Assembly: GCA_037137395.1 (NCBI GenBank)
Contig: JBAXKK010000020.1
Location: 1 to 35,273 of the forward strand
Length of the DNA stretch: 35,273 nucleotides
Source of the DNA: Elusimicrobiota bacterium
GTDB lineage: Bacteria; Elusimicrobiota; Elusimicrobia; Elusimicrobiales; UBA9959
Direction of reading: 5' to 3'
Under the pieces are notes generated by a model. That model was not told where the DNA came from and did not search any database. It worked only from the letters and a program-made list of their open reading frames with translations. Below, piece by piece: positions 1 through 35,273 of this stretch; within the stretch, counting starts at the first letter, position 1, and every line of letters starts with the position of its first letter. A program made the position numbers and the translations under genes.

Positions 1-54
1 AATAAAGTGACACACAACTTAATTAGCAATAATTAAGTTGTGTGTCACTTTATT
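1..54. repeat. Perfect 25-bp inverted repeat with a 4-nt GCAA loop; may extend left of the window
   Basis: 1-25 AATAAAGTGACACACAACTTAATTA is the exact reverse complement of 30-54 TAATTAAGTTGTGTGTCACTTTATT; loop 26-29 is GCAA. Confidence 0.95.
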
Positions 55-4571: not shown

Positions 4572-4731
4572 GGTTTAAGCATATAACCGCTCCACGCCGC
4601 GCTTTTAACCGGTTAATGATATATTCATATTATTCTATATTCGGATAGGGACCGCATGGGCCAAAAGCTTGCCTGGGGCATGAAAAAGTGCCCCTTGTTT
4701 TATAGGCCTTTCGGCCCAGGAATCTGTTTGC

Positions 4732-4947
4732 GAAAACAATAATGGAACGGCGGGGCTGGCAGCGGCTGCCAGGTCGGGATGGCCACAACGGCCAGGTCGG
4801 GGGCCTGCCAGCCATGGGCCCCATCGAGCCTGTGGCCGGCCCGGCGACTGACCTATGGGCGTGCCGCAACAGGGCCTATGGCCAACAGGCGGCCTACGCG
4901 CCGGTTCTTCCTCGGCCCGATCCAACCCATGTCTGTCACCCCTCCCT
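4732..4947. repeat. Dispersed structured repeat, family 1, copy 1
   Basis: Colinear with 8800-9030; 79-bp core 4839-4917 is identical to 8920-8998; ends pair imperfectly (GGGGCTGGCAG / CTGTCACCCC). Confidence 0.9.
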
Positions 4948-5012
4948 TATACCCCACCGTACTTAAAATTTTTTAGGGAGACATGATTTTGTTATGGAGA
5001 AACCCATCAAGC

Positions 5013-5069
5013 GGCGTGGGTGGCAGGGGCGCCGGTTCCGCGTTCCGGTCACCTGACGGGCCCCACGCC
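5013..5069. repeat. Dispersed structured repeat, family 2, internally deleted copy
   Basis: GGCGTGGGTGGCAGGGG joined to CGCCGGTTCCGCGTTCCGG..CCTGACGGGCCCCACG matches both ends of the reverse complement of 16180-16330, with about 85 nt of the centre missing. Confidence 0.8.
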
Positions 5070-5200
5070 AGTTTATCAATAGGCTGAAGTTTTTTGGAAC
5101 AGACGTGCTAAAGGCTCAGGAATCTGTTTACGACGGGTGTTTTGCCGAAGGGCTGTAAAAAGTGTAGTATAGATTAGATTTGATTTCCCGGGGGTTCAAA

Positions 5201-8157: not shown

Positions 8158-8622
8158 TTAGAGCAGTTTTACACAATTGGCCACGATCTTGTTGGTGATA
8201 TTGTCGCTGAGCATAAGGAAATAATCGCCCTGACTGCATTTTATTTCCTTATAGTTGGATATACCGAATTCTTTCGCAGCCTGCTGCGGGTTTTTTAGAA
8301 TGTCGGCGCTGGCTGGCATTATCTCAATGTTCTGATCAGCCCCGTCAGCCTTGCGGTACCCGCTAAACGAAGCTCCTTCGCCGCTAATTTCAAATACCAG
8401 CGATCCGATGATGATTTTTGAATCTGACATGAATCCGCCGAAAGTGATGTTGACCGGAAGTTTCTTGCCTTCCAGCACAACGGCGCCGGCAAGTTTCTGC
8501 GCGCTTTTCTGCTCCCCGCTATAAATGCCGGGCAGTTCCGTATTCAGTTTAGGAGTTTCCGCAGCCGCAGCCACGCCCGCAAGTAAGGTTATTACAAGAA
8601 TCGCGTTGAGATACATTTTCAT
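8158..8622 (-). CDS. Secreted hypothetical protein
   Basis: 154 aa; signal peptide MKMYLNAILVITLLAGVAAA; TGGAGA RBS; terminator downstream. Confidence 0.75.
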   Translation of the reverse strand: MKMYLNAILVITLLAGVAAAAETPKLNTELPGIYSGEQKSAQKLAGAVVLEGKKLPVNITFGGFMSDSKIIIGSLVFEISGEGASFSGYRKADGADQNIEIMPASADILKNPQQAAKEFGISNYKEIKCSQGDYFLMLSDNITNKIVANCVKLL

Positions 8623-8773: not shown

Positions 8774-9043
8774 CTGGGTCTAAAGCACGGTTGTCCCAAG
8801 AAAACAATAGGGGAATGGCGGGGTTGGCAGTTCTGGACGGCAGCAGCTGCCAGGTCGGCATGGCCGCTACCGCTAGTCTCGGGGTCCTGTCAGCCATGGG
8901 GCCCATCGGCCTGCGGCCAGCCCGGCGACTGACCTATGGGCGTGCCGCAACAGGGCCTATGGCCAACAGGCGGCCTACGCGCCGGTTCTTCCTCGGCCGA
9001 TCCGACCCATGGCCGCCACCCCGCCACTACACTGGGTCTAAAG
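8774..9043. mobile_element. Family-1 structured repeat, copy 2, flanked by a 12-bp direct repeat (non-autonomous insertion)
   Basis: CTGGGTCTAAAG at 8774-8785 and 9032-9043 brackets 246 bp homologous to 4732-4947; outer stem TGGCGGGG-T-TGGC / GCCA-CCCCGCCA. Confidence 0.75.
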
Positions 9044-10413: not shown

Positions 10414-10434
10414 ATTTTACACCGGTGATATTAT

Positions 10435-10662
10435 AAATCCTCCGCTAAGGTAAGCATAAAACTAAGACAGGCGTAATGTTGGAGCGGGTGACGGGGGATC
10501 TGGGTTAGCAAAACCCTCCGGAGCCTGAGGCTTGCGCAGCGACGAAGGCGAGGGCGGGAGTAGCGGCCACGGTGTGGCCGACTACGGTTTTGCGTTCCAG
10601 GCCCCCGGCAGGCCCTGCGAACCGAATAGTAAACAAAGTTGATTATGCTTTGCGGAGGATTT
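10435..10662. mobile_element. Family-2 structured repeat, full copy, bounded by terminal inverted repeats (MITE-like)
   Basis: AAATCCTCCGC 10435-10445 / GCGGAGGATTT 10652-10662 and AAGCATAA 10452-10459 / TTATGCTT 10643-10650; core 10474-10623 is homologous to the reverse complement of 16180-16330. Confidence 0.75.
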
Positions 10663-10730
10663 GGGCTATAAGGGGCTTTGATTTGGCCGGGCAATTTGCT
10701 ATAAATCTGGCTGATGGTTTGGAGGAAATT

Positions 10731-11264
10731 ATGAAAAAATCGGATATTTTTATTATTTGCGGAGCTATGTTTTTCCTTACGGGATGTCCTTATAGTTCGG
10801 ATATTCAGCTCGGCCGACCGTCGGTCAGGACTTTTGATAATGCTATTATCGGGAACTGGACAGGGTGTGACCTGAAAAATAAGTCTGATTGCGGACGCAT
10901 GGCGATCTATCGGTTCAATGAATCGGAATATTACGTCGAGGTTACCGATATCGAATATTCCGGCCCCAACCGGAATATCAACATCAAGACGGACCGATAC
11001 AGGGCTTTTATGACTGATATCGGCGTGGCGGGGCTTCTGGACGCGCAGGAGTTGAATATTTCAACCGCTACGCCCAATAAACATTTCTTCGTGAAAACAG
11101 AGATTCAGAAGGACAACACGCTTAAGTTGTCGTATATGTCCGATGAATTTGCCAAGACCAAGTTCTCCAACTCCGAAGAGCTCGCCGGGTATATCAGAAA
11201 AAACCATGCGGAGCCCGGGTTTTATGAATCTTTCCAGATTTTTGAGAGAGAAAAAACTAAATAA
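10731..11264 (+). CDS. Hypothetical lipoprotein
   Basis: GGAGG RBS before ATG 10731; lipobox FLTGC. The longer ORF from 10572 begins inside the repeat element. Confidence 0.8.
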   Translation: MKKSDIFIICGAMFFLTGCPYSSDIQLGRPSVRTFDNAIIGNWTGCDLKNKSDCGRMAIYRFNESEYYVEVTDIEYSGPNRNINIKTDRYRAFMTDIGVAGLLDAQELNISTATPNKHFFVKTEIQKDNTLKLSYMSDEFAKTKFSNSEELAGYIRKNHAEPGFYESFQIFEREKTK

Positions 11265-11272
11265 GGAAAAAA

Positions 11273-12118
11273 ATGATTGATATAAAGATCGGCGATGTCG
11301 TGCGAAACAAGACCTCTGACGCTTTCGGTGTGGTAGTGGATATAGAGCCGCCCAAAAACGCCGTAATTGCCGTGCATGGTCCCGATGTGACGCACCGGAT
11401 CAAATATGTGAACGCGGAACTATTGCCGCCGCCGGCTTTAAACAAGGACTTTAATTACGGCCGGTTCGTGAAGGATAGATTTGTCGGCATGATGGTTAAA
11501 ATAGAGGGCGATAAATATCTGGCGCTTTGCCCTGACGGCAAATGTTATCCAAAAGGTAAAAAATACGAAACCGGACACTGGTACAAGCTCGCCGAAATTA
11601 AAGAGGTCACCGAAGAAGAAAAGGAAGAGTTTTTATTCAAGCTGAGCGTACGCCATACTGAGGATGAGTATGTTAAGCGTTACGCGATGACTAAAGCTAA
11701 GTGGCGAGCGGCCGGGTTGGAGCCTGAGGTTAAGCGGTTTGAGGCTTTTTTCGACCGGATACTTTTGCGGATAGGCGGCAAGCCAGGGTTTAACTGGGGC
11801 GCGAGGCTGAGCACCGTGTTCGCTCCGGATCCTACCCTGAACCTGACAAAAAACACTCAAAAGGATATACAGGCGAACATGTTCTGCTTTTTCTCTCTCG
11901 GATTGGACGCGCGCACCGGGCAGAAGAATCTGTCCGTTTTTATAAAGGAATGGAAGTGGATACCTGAGGCTGCCCGCGTTCATTTTCCCAAGCAGGGCGA
12001 CGGCAGGTTCTATCCGCCGGGCCATTGCACCGTTCTATCCCTTGAAGCCCTGGATGACGCCGCGCTGCTGCAGCACGCTGATTCTCTGGCGCAAATATAT
12101 CTCTCGGCCGATAAATAA
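11273..12118 (+). CDS. Hypothetical protein with two N-terminal SH3/KOW-like modules; paralogue of 12874-13539
   Basis: 281 aa; AAGGA RBS; IKIGDVVRNK..FGVVVDI and VGMMVKIEGD modules; C-terminal region aligns by eye with 12874-13539. Confidence 0.75.
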   Translation: MIDIKIGDVVRNKTSDAFGVVVDIEPPKNAVIAVHGPDVTHRIKYVNAELLPPPALNKDFNYGRFVKDRFVGMMVKIEGDKYLALCPDGKCYPKGKKYETGHWYKLAEIKEVTEEEKEEFLFKLSVRHTEDEYVKRYAMTKAKWRAAGLEPEVKRFEAFFDRILLRIGGKPGFNWGARLSTVFAPDPTLNLTKNTQKDIQANMFCFFSLGLDARTGQKNLSVFIKEWKWIPEAARVHFPKQGDGRFYPPGHCTVLSLEALDDAALLQHADSLAQIYLSADK

Positions 12119-12131
12119 ACTTCTTTAGTGT

Positions 12132-12884
12132 ATGGATATACGGCTTTTTGACGCGCATAATCATCCCAGTAATTATTCCGGCCTTGCCAAAAGCGCGGAT
12201 GGCGGCGTGAAGGCTTGCCTTTGCAACGGCACCGGCCCGGAAGACTGGGAGAGCGTGCTGGCTCTGGCCGCGTCGCATAAAGGGATAATTCCGTGCTTCG
12301 GTTTGCATCCCTGGTCGTTAAATAAGGCAGGGGACGGCTGGCTTGAACTGCTTGAGGATTTTTTGACGCGCGCGCCCTCCTGCGTGGGCGAGATAGGCCT
12401 GGATTATTCTATTGATGCGGAGCCCGGCAGGCAGGAAGAGGCTTTCAGGGCCCAACTGCAGCTTGCTAAAAAGCTCAAGCGGCCGATTTCAATACATTGC
12501 GTGAGGGCCTGGGGCAGGCTTTTGGCCATCCTTAAGGAGGAGCAGCCGCCTGCTTTTATGCTGCACGCTTACGGAGGGCCGGCTGAAATGGTGAGCGGCC
12601 TGTCACGCCTTGGAGCTTATTTTTCTTTCAGCGGTGAGATGATGAATCCCCGGCGCGAAAAAATGCGCAGGGCCCTTTTGACCGCGCCGCCGAAAAGACT
12701 GCTGTTTGAGAGCGAATCCCCGGAGTCTGACGCTAAATTCCAAGACCTGACCCCGTCAGAGGGGTTGGCCGGGGTTATCCGCGCGGCGGCTCTGGCGCTG
12801 GGGCAGAGCTCTGAGTCGCTGGGCGAACAAAGCTGGCGCAACGCCAAGATATTCCTCGGTAAATATTTCCCCGCTAAACTATAA
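12132..12884 (+). CDS. tatD: TatD-family metal-dependent DNase/hydrolase
   Basis: DAHNH, GLHPW, VGEIGLD, SIHC and LHAY motifs; ESES in place of the usual ETD. Confidence 0.9.
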   Translation: MDIRLFDAHNHPSNYSGLAKSADGGVKACLCNGTGPEDWESVLALAASHKGIIPCFGLHPWSLNKAGDGWLELLEDFLTRAPSCVGEIGLDYSIDAEPGRQEEAFRAQLQLAKKLKRPISIHCVRAWGRLLAILKEEQPPAFMLHAYGGPAEMVSGLSRLGAYFSFSGEMMNPRREKMRRALLTAPPKRLLFESESPESDAKFQDLTPSEGLAGVIRAAALALGQSSESLGEQSWRNAKIFLGKYFPAKL

Positions 12885-13539
12885 CGTTTTTATAGATGGT
12901 CTTTATGCAGTCCAGATAAGCCTGGCGTTTCTCGGTCGTGAAATCTTTATAGCTTAGTTCCACGGCGCGGCCTGCGCCGAACATGGCGTGGTCTATCGGG
13001 AACAGCGCTTCGCTGCCCGGCGGCAGGAATTCCTTTTTTATCTCCATCCTAAGGCCGTAGCCGGCCAATAAATTAAGGCAATACACCCATTTCTGCGTTG
13101 CCGGGTTGTAGATCTTCAGCACCGGGCAGGGATTCGCCGCGGTGTTCGGCTTCATGTCCCAGGTCTTGCCGGGCTGGTCGCCAATAGCTGTCAATATTTC
13201 GGTCCAAAAGATAGTGAAGGCTTCGCCCGACTTCGGATATCTGAGGGCGATATGCCTGATGAATTTATCGCACGCCGAGCGTATGAGTTCCGGGTCAACT
13301 ATTCTGGCCGAAGCCGTTTTCTTACCCTCTTCGTCTTTTTTTAGTTGCTCTGTCAGAAGTTTGAGCGTTTCCGCTTCGACCGCGCCAGCCGGTTCGAGAT
13401 ATTGGGATTTAAAAGTCATCCTGTCGCCGGTTGCCGTGTGTACGGTTATATTGTCGCCAACGACTTTTATCACTACGCCGAGAGCCTTGTTGATTACGTT
13501 CCTGACCGGCGCGTATTGTCCAAATTTTTCAATTTCCAT
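12874..13539 (-). CDS. Hypothetical protein; paralogue of 11273-12118
   Basis: 221 aa; VRNVINKALGVVIKVVGDNITV module and FWTEILTAIGDQPGKTW; converges on tatD with an 11-bp overlap. Confidence 0.8.
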   Translation of the reverse strand: MEIEKFGQYAPVRNVINKALGVVIKVVGDNITVHTATGDRMTFKSQYLEPAGAVEAETLKLLTEQLKKDEEGKKTASARIVDPELIRSACDKFIRHIALRYPKSGEAFTIFWTEILTAIGDQPGKTWDMKPNTAANPCPVLKIYNPATQKWVYCLNLLAGYGLRMEIKKEFLPPGSEALFPIDHAMFGAGRAVELSYKDFTTEKRQAYLDCIKTIYKNVIV

Positions 13540-13717
13540 ATCCGCTTATCCCCTCTGTCCGACGCTAAACCCTTAACCTAGTGATATTATACGAAAAGTT
13601 TCCGGATTCCGAACGCGACAGTACGCTGTCGGGGTGGCGGGCTATACTATTTTATGTCATATAGAGTATCTGCCGTAGTCCGCTAGGCGTATGCTGCACT
13701 CTTTTAAGGAGGATTAT

Positions 13718-14386
13718 ATGTGTAAAGATATAATGGAGATGGAAAAAATTGAGAGGCCGAGGGAAAAATTGATGCGCTATGGTCCAGAGAAGCTCTCGGA
13801 CAATGAGCTGCTGGCCATACTTTTAAAGACCGGGACTAAGGAGCGCAATGTTATGGATATGGCGGGGGACATCCTGACAGAATTCAAAAGGGAGAATCTG
13901 ACAAACGCGGGCTTTGAAAATCTTAAGGGGCATTCCGGTCTGGGGCCGGTTAAGGCGTGCGAGATCATCGCGGCCTTTGAGCTGGGAAAGCGGTTTTTTA
14001 CGGGAAAAAAGACCAATATCTACCTGAAGCCCCGTGATGTGTGGGAAGAGCTGAGAGATATAAGGGATAATAAAAAGGAGCATTTTGTCACTTTCTATCT
14101 GGACACGCGAAATCAGGAGATAAAAAGGGACATAGTTTCTATCGGCACGCTCAACTATAATCTCGTGCATCCGCGCGAGGTTTTTGAGCCGGCCGTAAGG
14201 AACCTGGCCGCCGGCATAATCCTGGCGCACAATCATCCCTCTGGCTGCCTTGAGCCGTCCGATGAGGACTTGAGCCTTACCAAGCGCCTTGTGCAGGCCG
14301 GTAAACTGCTTGGTATAGAGGTGCTGGACCATGTGATAGTGACAAAGGAGGGGTTTGCCAGCTTCAAGCAGAAGAATTTGATGTGA
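13718..14386 (+). CDS. radC: RadC (UPF0758, JAB domain) protein
   Basis: ERPREKL, LSDNELLAILL, VHPREVF, AHNHPSG and LDHVIV; AGGAGG RBS before ATG 13718. Confidence 0.95.
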   Translation: MCKDIMEMEKIERPREKLMRYGPEKLSDNELLAILLKTGTKERNVMDMAGDILTEFKRENLTNAGFENLKGHSGLGPVKACEIIAAFELGKRFFTGKKTNIYLKPRDVWEELRDIRDNKKEHFVTFYLDTRNQEIKRDIVSIGTLNYNLVHPREVFEPAVRNLAAGIILAHNHPSGCLEPSDEDLSLTKRLVQAGKLLGIEVLDHVIVTKEGFASFKQKNLM

Positions 14387-14485
14387 GAACATCTGCCCTG
14401 CCGCGGTCTCCCAACGCTAAGGCGCGGGGGGGCGACTTATGAATGCTATAATTTTTCCAAGGATTTTACGGGTTAAGGAGACTGC

Positions 14486-14893
14486 ATGCTTTTTGATAAT
14501 ATGAGCGCGGAAATGGTTAAGGCGATGATTGAGCGTATCCCGGCTGAAGTTACGGTGATAGACGCCAATGATGAAGTGGTCGGCTGGAACAAGCACGAGA
14601 CAAGGCTGTTCAGGCGGCCTATGGAGTCCATGGGGATGAATTTCAGGCAATGCCATCCTGAGCGCAGTCTGGCCATGGTGGAAAAAATCATAGCGGAGAT
14701 GAAGGCCGGAACCAGGGAGAAGGTCCGATTCTGGATAGACCTTGAGGTGAAAAAGGGCGAGCCCAAGCACAAAATACTTATAGAATTCTACGCGCTGCGC
14801 GACGAGAGTAAAAAATATATCGGCTGCCTGGAGTTCACGCAGGATGTGGAGGATATAAGGCGGCTGGAAGGTCAGAAACGGCTGATGGATTAA
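14486..14893 (+). CDS. Stand-alone PAS-domain protein (DUF438/PAS_10-like)
   Basis: IPAEVTVIDANDEV, CHPERS and YIGCLEFTQD; AAGGAG RBS. Confidence 0.85.
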   Translation: MLFDNMSAEMVKAMIERIPAEVTVIDANDEVVGWNKHETRLFRRPMESMGMNFRQCHPERSLAMVEKIIAEMKAGTREKVRFWIDLEVKKGEPKHKILIEFYALRDESKKYIGCLEFTQDVEDIRRLEGQKRLMD

Positions 14894-14977
14894 TCAAAAA
14901 TCGCCTGGGCGATTTTTAAAGCGCGGCAGTGCGGCAGCAAGACAGTGCGGCAGGTGCTGCTGGTTAATACACTAAAT

Positions 14978-15007
14978 AAAAAAGCCGGGCAAAAGCCCGG
15001 CTTTTTT
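14978..15007. terminator. Bidirectional rho-independent terminator
   Basis: AAAAAAGCCGGGC-AAAA-GCCCGGCTTTTTT. Confidence 0.9.
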
Positions 15008-15020
15008 GCGTCAGGACTTT

Positions 15021-15662
15021 TTAATTTGTTTTGTAAAGTTCCGGCCAGATCGGAGTCAGCGAACTTGTGAACGATTCGGAGATCTCTCTCTTAGCCGAAG
15101 TTATATCAAAGCCTTCGTAAGACATCGAAGCTGACCACATTATGGAGCCGGTCTGCACGTCTACCATGCGGGAAACCAGCGAAACATTAGCGGTGGTGCT
15201 CAGGATCTGGGAGTTGGGCATGCCCAACACGGAGCCCTCGGAATAGACGGAGCCAGCGGCGACCTGTGTCACATTCGTCACAATAGCGTTGTCGGACCCG
15301 CTCACCAGGTAGCTTGCCGGGGGCGTGCTTTCTCCTACGGTGCCTACGAAAATGGCGTCCACGCCCAGGAGTTTACCCAACTGCTTTGCCGTGGCCGAGT
15401 CAAAAGATGTTGAAGATGAGAGCGATTGTTCTTTCATAACCGCGTCAAGGCGCTGGCGTTCTACCACATCGGCGCCGCGCATCATCAGGCTCTGGGTCAG
15501 CATATCCGCGGCCAGATCTCCTTTCGGGCCGTTAAAGGGCAGCACCGCCACGCGCTTGATGGCCGAAAAATTGGCGCGCGGATTTATGGCCACTTGCGGG
15601 GTTACGCAGGCGGTCAGCAGAGCCAGGGCGGGTAAAGCAAGAAGAAGTCGTATATTTTTCAT
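15021..15662 (-). CDS. CsgG/HfaB-like (TolB-N fold) lipoprotein
   Basis: Lipobox LLTAC; VAVLPF, VVERQRLDAVMKEQ, LGKLLGVDAI and RMVDVQTG motifs. Confidence 0.85.
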   Translation of the reverse strand: MKNIRLLLALPALALLTACVTPQVAINPRANFSAIKRVAVLPFNGPKGDLAADMLTQSLMMRGADVVERQRLDAVMKEQSLSSSTSFDSATAKQLGKLLGVDAIFVGTVGESTPPASYLVSGSDNAIVTNVTQVAAGSVYSEGSVLGMPNSQILSTTANVSLVSRMVDVQTGSIMWSASMSYEGFDITSAKREISESFTSSLTPIWPELYKTN

Positions 15663-15671
15663 CAGTTAGTC

Positions 15672-16088
15672 CTAACGGCTCCTGAGATGGTGCAGGTGTT
15701 TTAGCGCTTTTTCGCTCATCCACTGCTCGGTAGCGGTTTCAAGGCAGGCTTTCCAGGCGGCTATGGCTTTATCTTTAAGATCCTTTTTTTCGTAGATGAG
15801 GCCAAGCATATAATGGGCTATTGCTTTTTTGGGATCCAGGCGGACAGCGTTCTCAAAAGCGGTTTGGGCCTCGTCGGCCTTTTCAAGTTTGGCGTAGGTG
15901 AAGCCGAGCTTGATATATAATTCAACATTGGCGGGGTCCTGTTTTATCGCGCCATTCAGCGTCACCGCGTTATTTTCAAGCTCCTGCACGCTCAGGTGTT
16001 TGCCTGACCAGTGACCTTCGTCCGAATAAGCCCGCGCCACCGGCAGCGCCATTGCGGCTGAAAAAAACATTAACAGAAAATATTTCAT
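15672..16088 (-). CDS. Secreted TPR-repeat protein
   Basis: Signal peptide; TPR units LYIKLGFTYAKLEKADEAQTAFENAVRLDP and AHYMLGLIYEK; GAGGTG RBS before ATG 16088. Confidence 0.85.
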   Translation of the reverse strand: MKYFLLMFFSAAMALPVARAYSDEGHWSGKHLSVQELENNAVTLNGAIKQDPANVELYIKLGFTYAKLEKADEAQTAFENAVRLDPKKAIAHYMLGLIYEKKDLKDKAIAAWKACLETATEQWMSEKALKHLHHLRSR

Positions 16089-16179
16089 ACATCGCACCTC
16101 TCTTATCGTAAAAGCATATAAAATTTGACAGCGCTTTGATAGGTAACGTCAAGACTTCTGTGTAATCCCCCCAATGCAG

Positions 16180-16330
16180 GGTTCGCGGGGCCTGTCAGGG
16201 GCCCCGGAACGCGGAACCAGCGTCGCGCACACCGTGCGCGCGCTTCCGGACCTCGGTCTCGGCGCTACGCAAGCCTCGGCCTCCGGTACGGTTCCGCTTA
16301 TCCGGTTCCCCTGCCCCCCACTCCACCTTA
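16180..16330. repeat. Family-2 structured repeat, full copy, opposite orientation to 10474-10623
   Basis: Colinear over about 150 bp with the reverse complement of 10474-10623; stems are preserved by compensatory changes. Confidence 0.9.
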
Positions 16331-16434
16331 TATGCCAGGGGTTTATCCTTCCAAGTCATATTCCTCATAGCGCAGTGTTGACCGGATAAAGGTAATGTTT
16401 GTAATCTTGTTGCCGGAGCGGAAAAGGAGGAAAA

Positions 16435-34949: not shown

Positions 34950-35204
34950 CTAATCTGGCGCGGGGAATTCTATATGCTTTATTCTCCAGCGGTAGCCGGC
35001 GCCGGATTTTAGATAGCGTTCTTTTGCCAGGGCTTCTTTGTGTGAGGAGAAAGATGCCCAATAAACCATAATCCAGGGACCGCGACCTTTGGTCGCTTTT
35101 TCCTGATCTCCGGAATGTTCATGGAAACGGCGGATTAAGTTATCTGTCGAGCCAATATAGTAACGCTCGGTTGAGCGGCTATATAGGATGTAGGTGAAAA
35201 ACAT
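34950..35204 (-). CDS. Small GIY-YIG nuclease (UPF0213/Slx1-like)
   Basis: FTYILYS..YYIGST, RR..EH, T..RGPW and E.YLKS. Confidence 0.9.
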   Translation of the reverse strand: MFFTYILYSRSTERYYIGSTDNLIRRFHEHSGDQEKATKGRGPWIMVYWASFSSHKEALAKERYLKSGAGYRWRIKHIEFPAPD

Positions 35205-35220
35205 AAAAAAACCGGCTGTA

Positions 35221-35273
35221 TGGCGGGGTCGACGGGATTCGAACCCGCGGTCTTCGCCTTGACAGGGCGACGT
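35221..35273 (-). tRNA. tRNA-Asp(GTC), 3' portion; 5' end lies outside the window
   Basis: Minus strand: anticodon arm TCGCC-CTGTCAA-GGCGA, T arm GCGGG-TTCGAAT-CCCGT, and encoded CCA ending at 35221. Confidence 0.95.

Follow-up and report, generated by a model that had tools for sequence, protein, structure and literature searches.

A branched 95-nt repeat core in hairpins and insertion-sequence ends of Elusimicrobiota: a candidate REPIN-like element

Introduction

The described systems closest to the element reported here are structured repeats dispersed in bacterial genomes. The element is a branched, foldable core (family 2) that occurs in two full copies, A and B, and one deleted copy in a 35,273-nt stretch of an Elusimicrobiota bacterium genome (GenBank assembly GCA_037137395.1, contig JBAXKK010000020.1, positions 1 to 35,273, forward strand), hereafter the window. 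Repetitive extragenic palindromes (REPs), their paired hairpin form (REPINs) and the REP-associated tyrosine transposases (RAYTs) resemble it in several respects. According to PMC3116915, PMC8266576 and PMC3733652, these repeats are, like the core, extragenic, multi-copy, clade-wide and persistent; they have a strand-specific fold with conserved bulges and compensatory changes, and they form inverted dimers, heterodimers included. PMC8266576 describes TnpA-REP as recognizing folded single-stranded DNA strand-specifically through bulges, and PMC3733652 describes REP families that insert within other palindromes. The core differs from REPs in lacking a GTAG head (wrapped copies start with TGGA, and free-standing copies have no common head), in being a branched unit of 95 nt where REPs have a hairpin of 20–40 nt, in being at none of 39 Y1/RAYT loci examined, in that its interior is exchanged while stems stay, and in residing in the ends of DDE-type insertion sequences (ISs).

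The bcr1 repeat of the Bacillus cereus group is, according to the review PMC3184786, likewise ~150 nt long, with a branched fold kept by compensatory changes, patchy between relatives and without a known enzyme. Unlike the core, it is transcribed and has a 5-bp direct repeat in every case, whereas duplications around the core vary with the IS that carries it, and the core has no fixed ends. Copy A shares with IS-derived miniature inverted-repeat transposable elements (MITEs) and IS1380 mobilization, as described in PMC9330008, the inverted repeats of an intact IS, a 5-bp duplication and the lack of an open reading frame (ORF), but its cargo is a separately evolving structured cassette that also occurs on its own and in the ends of IS256 and rve-type elements. 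In the stem-loops of Borrelia IS200/IS605 ends, again according to PMC3184786, a structured IS end outlives its IS and shows compensatory changes, as does the core; those loops are native to one IS family, whereas here the cassette was added, because IS relatives without it exist. Interior swaps such as those reported below are not described in the accessible part of the REPORTH preprint (10.1101/2024.10.14.618302). The spread of orphan palindromic repeats such as ERIC and bcr1, which have no known enzyme, has long been a puzzle. The core family is real and belongs with the structured interspersed repeats; it is undescribed as far as searched, no description having been found in a search of mostly open-access literature.

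Results

Structure, covariation and the folded strand

Copy A (10480–10623, +) and copy B (16180–16325, −) each consist of a wrapper stem around a conserved core. The ~95-nt core of copy A, with its internal loop, three-way junction and two arms, occupies 10503–10597 (+) and that of copy B 16207–16302 (−), while the third copy (5013–5069, +) has an internal deletion that leaves the wrapper arms and the 3′ part of the core. An earlier note, made from this DNA alone, had reported all three: copies A and B are real, with positions right to within a few bases, the deleted copy lies where it was placed, and the nine paired changes listed between A and B (2+5+1+1) are all present in the sequence. 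Three further paired changes appear in alignment A2, at columns 27–69, 36–61 and 38–59. Both copies fold more stably than shuffled sequence, with z values of −2.75 (copy A) and −5.73 (copy B) on the named strand and −2.16 and −4.15 on the opposite strand. The same note had treated the element as a unit of ~150 nt. The copies do align over that length, but the element is a composite of core, wrapper stem and differing IS ends; the conserved unit is the core, and the outer stems are interchangeable.

Covariation was measured in A2, which comprises 54 copies (52 loci filtered to <90% identity and the two window copies). In this set 92.4% of cells pair and both-sided change occurs in 30 of 47 pairs; 0 of 500 shuffles reached the observed pairing, and slid controls gave 37–51%, bearing out the claim that selection acts on a branched secondary structure. 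The fold begins with the outer stem, a 3×2 internal loop, a 6-bp helix and the three-way junction. In the first arm, 6 pairs around a pyrimidine mismatch are followed by a GGA/GA loop; next come 9 positions with a sliding tandem G-A, which shifts along a helix of fixed length, and after a 2-nt bulge the arm closes with a small loop of the form purine-N-(N)-A. GTAA or GCAA forms this apical loop in 24 of the 54 copies, and the variants ATA, ATAA, GTA and GCA also occur. The second arm is an 11-bp helix with a bulged A and a GGT loop. Part of A2 came from a scan with a pattern that fixes both the hairpin with the GGT loop and the 3′ GCGTTCC, which by itself accounts for some of their invariance in A2; both are invariant or nearly so in 21 copies of this genome found without that pattern, and these loops vary in distant families. 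A long segment earlier called conserved is so only in its loop bases, while its stem varies freely across copies, and the GCGAACC end, also said to be conserved, belongs to the wrapper, which is absent from many copies.

Three known motifs were considered and dropped. A kink-turn has a 3-nt bulge adjoining tandem G-A pairs; here A2 covariation at columns 27–69 and 29–67 fixes the register with the GGA/GA loop instead. Integron attC sites and domain VI of group II introns were rejected on register or motif grounds.

A strict motif test found wrapper ends of the form TGGA...GAAC in 74 of 130 copies, and the wrapper also encloses other interiors, such as the cassettes of a sister family, family 1, at 4794–4946 (−), which forms a divergent pair with the third copy, and at 8876–9024 (−). 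Some cores hold extra inserted hairpin modules, one of which is found in either orientation. Another wrapper interior (L155, L115, L052, L195 and G000:C6:23079, where G000 is this genome and L numbers are compared loci) has the 3′ loop motif of the core permuted and reversed, and has a GCAG/GAG loop in common with family 1. In metagenome loci L178, L226, L248, L294 and others, the core lies inside up to 3 nested wrapper layers, each with a purine-rich head, a stem and a GAAC tail. At G000:C32:2750–3000, the 5′ part of the core is replaced by a small inverted-repeat element whose ends are those found around the Y1 gene of contig C4.

Sequence in the outer stem is almost unconstrained, yet 11.0 of 12 positions are paired, versus 8.6 for mismatched arms. 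Among 99 distinct outer stems, read on the strand named in the earlier note, G-T pairs outnumber A-C (50 vs 17) and purine-purine mismatches outnumber pyrimidine-pyrimidine (76 vs 5); the folded strand is therefore the one named. That note had held that G-T wobbles do not settle the strand, and the stem mismatch asymmetry does settle more than it allowed, although folding energy does not discriminate: RNA and DNA models failed to separate the strands (27 and 30 of 54 copies).

Copy number, distribution and genomic setting

A prediction that the genome would hold many copies proved right: a profile built from copies A and B gave 41 matches in this genome, and a covariance model 36. Within the host family the covariance model gave at least 1,878 matches, spread over 65 of 80 genomes and 6 of 13 genera; a class-wide search had matches in 8 of 141 genomes, with four other families represented. 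A core pattern was found in at least 121 metagenome stretches, with 0 matches to viral contigs. No Rfam family matched over the element in the window at E≤5, or at 7 other loci at E≤1, self-cleaving ribozymes included, in agreement with its earlier description as a candidate undescribed element. This genome's assembly is rated 7.7% contaminated, and some copies may derive from a related strain.

Copies are extragenic, multi-copy and persistent within the clade, with compensatory pairing. Their neighbor genes are diverse, the only mobile genes among 125 scanned of 152 cluster representatives being one IS110 and one rve transposase, and the 79 neighbors in this genome included no mobile-element gene, nuclease or recombinase. 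Orientation to neighbor genes is even (45/50 upstream, 40/41 downstream), and GC skew reveals no replication-strand bias (20 vs 18); a cis-regulatory leader was rejected because neighbors are unrelated and orientation is random. Median distance to the nearest gene is 101 nt on the 5′ side versus 55 nt on the 3′ side. No −10 box at a fixed distance was found in 143 copies, and no promoter or terminator at copies A and B; together with the random orientation, this means that a stand-alone RNA gene is not supported. Most copies are single, though close pairs are all divergent in this genome (7/7 under 500 nt), as are 24 of 25 pairs under 3.5 kb across all loci. A divergent-pair rule of kilobase range, suggested by core-core pairs among all loci (7/7), fails in this genome once family-1 copies are added, pairs more than 500 nt apart then being 4 divergent, 8 tandem and 4 convergent.

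Filled, empty and exchanged sites

Copies are present or absent at matching sites between relatives of ~91% identity. The orthologous site of copy A in the congener G001 also holds a copy, whereas interiors are swapped at C21 and at the copy-B site, where the wrapper is the same in G001 but encloses a family-1 interior. In the spacer with the family-1 cassette at 8876–9024, G001 has different cassettes, including a family-2 core. At L045, a related unit is flanked by an 8-bp duplication, and the matching site in this genome is empty.

The spacer between lysS and a permease gene was compared across genomes; 41 of 43 genomes of genus g4 matched, and the best 30 of the 41 were read. Among these 30, the core is present in sense orientation in 16 (one partial) and in inverted orientation in 3 (one partial); 10 lack it and the remaining 1 is masked, so that 16 of 19 cores are in mRNA sense. 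Every readable empty spacer holds some other hairpin-like sequence, as read by eye, including heptamer arrays like that of this genome; heptamer-array palindromes stand where other genomes have the core at G000:C15 (this genome's lysS spacer), L483 and L487. Outer-stem identity is 0.70 between orthologues (136 pairs), 0.50 between same-genome paralogues (12) and 0.54 between other paralogues (379), and the corresponding values for the core are 0.82, 0.84 and 0.83. Because stem identity is higher in orthologues while core identity is flat, the outer stem appears to track the site and the core does not, a pattern that fits an exchange of cores between resident stems.

Insertion-sequence carriers

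Missed in the earlier note was that copies A and B lie in different IS ends, IS1380 for copy A and IS256 for copy B. Copy A lies in an IS1380-derived MITE of 234 bp without an ORF, bounded on both sides by 18-bp inverted repeats, one degenerate (10432–10449, +) and the other closing the MITE (10648–10665, −). The same repeat bounds intact IS1380 elements of ~450 aa (L146, L163 and L145), of which the L146 protein exceeds the cut-off of NF033539. In G001 the 5-bp target duplication is preserved in full; here 4 of its 5 positions match. Copy B lies in the remnant of an IS256 right end and not in a MITE, with only that end and the transposase tail present: the right inverted repeat (16142–16165, −) is identical over 24 nt to the right end of the intact IS256 element L393 (NF033543), and the last transposase codons (WKDKPLA; 16333–16359, −) were identified by comparison with L393, while the left end and the rest of the gene are missing.

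Cassettes come and go among related ISs. L146 and L163 have none, L145 and L171 have a family-1 cassette between left end and gene, and at L104 the core studied here lies ahead of a 5′ fragment of an IS1380 transposase gene. A distant core follows a 3′ fragment in another family (L367), and the IS1380 link recurs in two other families. In L393 the wrapper with a family-1 interior separates the stop codon from the right repeat; in the related IS L394 the right repeat directly follows the stop codon. In an rve-type IS (L330, and L334 in this genome), whose transposase falls under the cut-offs of the IS481 and IS3 models, the stop codon is followed by the core, between 8-bp repeats. The core is missing from a relative with 66% identity, and the cassette has been inherited within this lineage across two genera. 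All informative cases have the cassette on the stretch from the transposase gene to the nearest end, its 5′ side directed toward the gene. Of 35 copies in this genome, 15 are flanked by known IS ends, versus 0.6% of random positions. At E≤0.001 no core was present in 23 PF13751 loci or in 29 of 30 IS256 loci.

At L055 (genome G088) the IS1380-type repeat has an unrelated palindromic cassette between its two copies, together with a 7-bp duplication. In a single case, L208, a copy has lost its left arm where an IS110 transposase gene adjoins it, as though that gene had inserted into the copy.

Search for a mobilizing enzyme

A census of adjoining genes, suggested in the earlier note, was taken up in its HUH/RAYT, GIY-YIG and reverse transcriptase (RT) part and yielded no partner, with the core at 0 of 39 Y1 loci. 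The genome's own Y1/RAYT genes were rejected because they carry other repeats, and GIY-YIG and RT genes because they are not adjacent to core copies. An 84-aa GIY-YIG gene lies at 34950–35273 (−) of the window, directly after the 3′ end of a tRNA-Asp gene, and a second small GIY-YIG gene, with an internal stop, lies just ahead of tRNA-Ser on G000:C11. The RT gene is part of a cassette at G000:C52:11400–14300 that resembles a diversity-generating retroelement (DGR), with an Avd-like gene and a template-like repeat.

Discussion

We give roughly even credence to the proposal that the core is a REPIN-like non-autonomous element, folded on one strand, which moves into the loops of hairpins and is carried further by IS ends. 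It would be recognized as a folded single strand, probably DNA by analogy with REPINs, by a trans-acting enzyme, and the fixed loops and helix lengths would then form a protein-binding surface. The core is likely inserted or exchanged into hairpin loops, and may move by a route of its own, since IS ends are absent from most copies outside this genus. Copies that had come to lie in IS ends would have spread by DDE transposition, which may account for copy A in its IS1380 MITE and copy B in its IS256 remnant, and hosts may keep copies because a spacer hairpin is tolerated or useful. A related version, which we regard as rather unlikely, would be a new class of hairpin-homing element, a branched module that replicates by replacing hairpin loops, whether in spacers, other repeats or IS ends, through an undescribed host enzyme or its own catalysis, and that persists at tens of copies per genome across a bacterial family.

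Several observations weigh against a REPIN-like element. The GTAG head was not found, the core is at none of the Y1/RAYT loci examined (39 of ~220 family matches), and the genome's own GIY-YIG, RAYT and RT genes have unrelated repeats. Clean entry of a bare core into an empty hairpin was not seen, nor was a general target duplication or fixed end found around the core; an 8-nt direct repeat occurs at 39 of 130 copies, compared with 24–34 in shuffles. At the lysS site the strand asymmetry is absent from 17 stems (G-T 10, A-C 12), the flat core identity could be saturation, and the genomes compared are kin and not independent samples. As for the carriers, known IS ends occur at only 15 of 122 metagenome hits, L330 is the only intact IS found with this core, and the intact IS1380 and IS256 examples carry sister family 1, the core itself lying only beside IS1380 fragments (L104, L367).

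An unlikely alternative is that the core is a functional RNA (an mRNA-stabilizing or processing element, a small RNA or a ribozyme) selected by the host and spread by hitchhiking and gene conversion only. Such an RNA could explain why non-canonical motifs are conserved, namely the tandem G-A sliding on a helix of fixed length and the GGA/GA loops, as well as the frequent GTAA/GCAA apical loop, the orthologous stems that stay paired in place, the predominance of mRNA sense among lysS cores, and the presence of some other hairpin-like sequence in all readable empty lysS spacers. It is harder to reconcile with the random orientation to neighbors, the lack of any fixed −10 box, promoter or terminator among those sought, the persistence of inverted cores, and the lack of an Rfam match; the loop variants ATA, ATAA, GTA and GCA also violate the GNRA rule. 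We hold it improbable that no dedicated enzyme is involved and that cruciform breakage, template switching between arms and gene conversion make the paired changes, swaps and inversions while ISs disperse the copies. Inversions within the same arms, the many unrelated palindromes that occupy the lysS spacer and the failure to find a partner gene all suit this account. Template switching, however, would erase mismatches, yet those of the G-A, G-T and pyrimidine kinds are kept on one strand, at positions that are fixed; moreover, shared arms are only ~12–20 nt, and copies outside this genus mostly lack IS ends yet number at least 40 per genome.

The constant placement of cassettes between transposase gene and nearest end, with the 5′ side to the gene, their inheritance in the rve-type lineage across two genera and the recurrence of the IS1380 link in two other families would also be expected if cassettes were accessory modules of ISs (end insulators or outward-facing RNAs) that unrelated IS families took up for their benefit to transposition or persistence. 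We consider this very improbable: close IS relatives (L146, L163, L394 and L332) lack a cassette, the PF13751 loci and nearly all IS256 loci searched have no core, and IS ends are missing from most copies. Hardly any credence is given to a tRNA-Gly mimic or tRNA primer-binding site that moves via reverse transcription. Of the first 16 nt of copy A, 14 agree with the complement of the 3′ end of the host tRNA-Gly, a score that 1 of 300 shuffles reaches, and the other end resembles the T-loop; the match is, however, found in one wrapper type only, copy B is at chance level (11/16), the wrapper differs from host tRNA-Gly ends in four relatives, and the only RT found in this genome lies in the DGR-like cassette. 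A tRNA-Gly origin was dropped, as the tRNA-like end is restricted to that one wrapper type. No tRNA-Gly(TCC) was called in this genome.

Whichever account holds, the family is a resource of at least 1,878 copies with strong covariation, filled and empty sites, and swaps and inversions at orthologous sites. Its sharp genus pattern (six with, seven without) makes a phylogenetic-profile search for the enzyme directly feasible. A structure-guided insertion or replacement system, if true, would be of interest as a genome-engineering tool; if the core acts as RNA, it would be an abundant undescribed motif.

Other features of the window

The third copy and its family-1 partner lie in a compound insert bounded by a 17-bp direct repeat (left copy 4717–4733, +; right copy 5117–5133, +; 16 of 17 identical). 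G001 has a single copy of this repeat and lacks the DNA between. A PF13751-type IS was rejected as carrier of the 4717–5133 compound, as PF13751 loci showed neither the core nor that end; IS1182 had been a tentative guess for this carrier. Opposite window position 8525, the congener alone has a ~190-bp insert with PF13751-type IS ends (L125). Window positions 1–54 contain a perfect inverted repeat of 25 bp; repeats of this kind also flank a Y1/RAYT gene at G000:C47 and end a truncated IS1380 gene at G000:C80.

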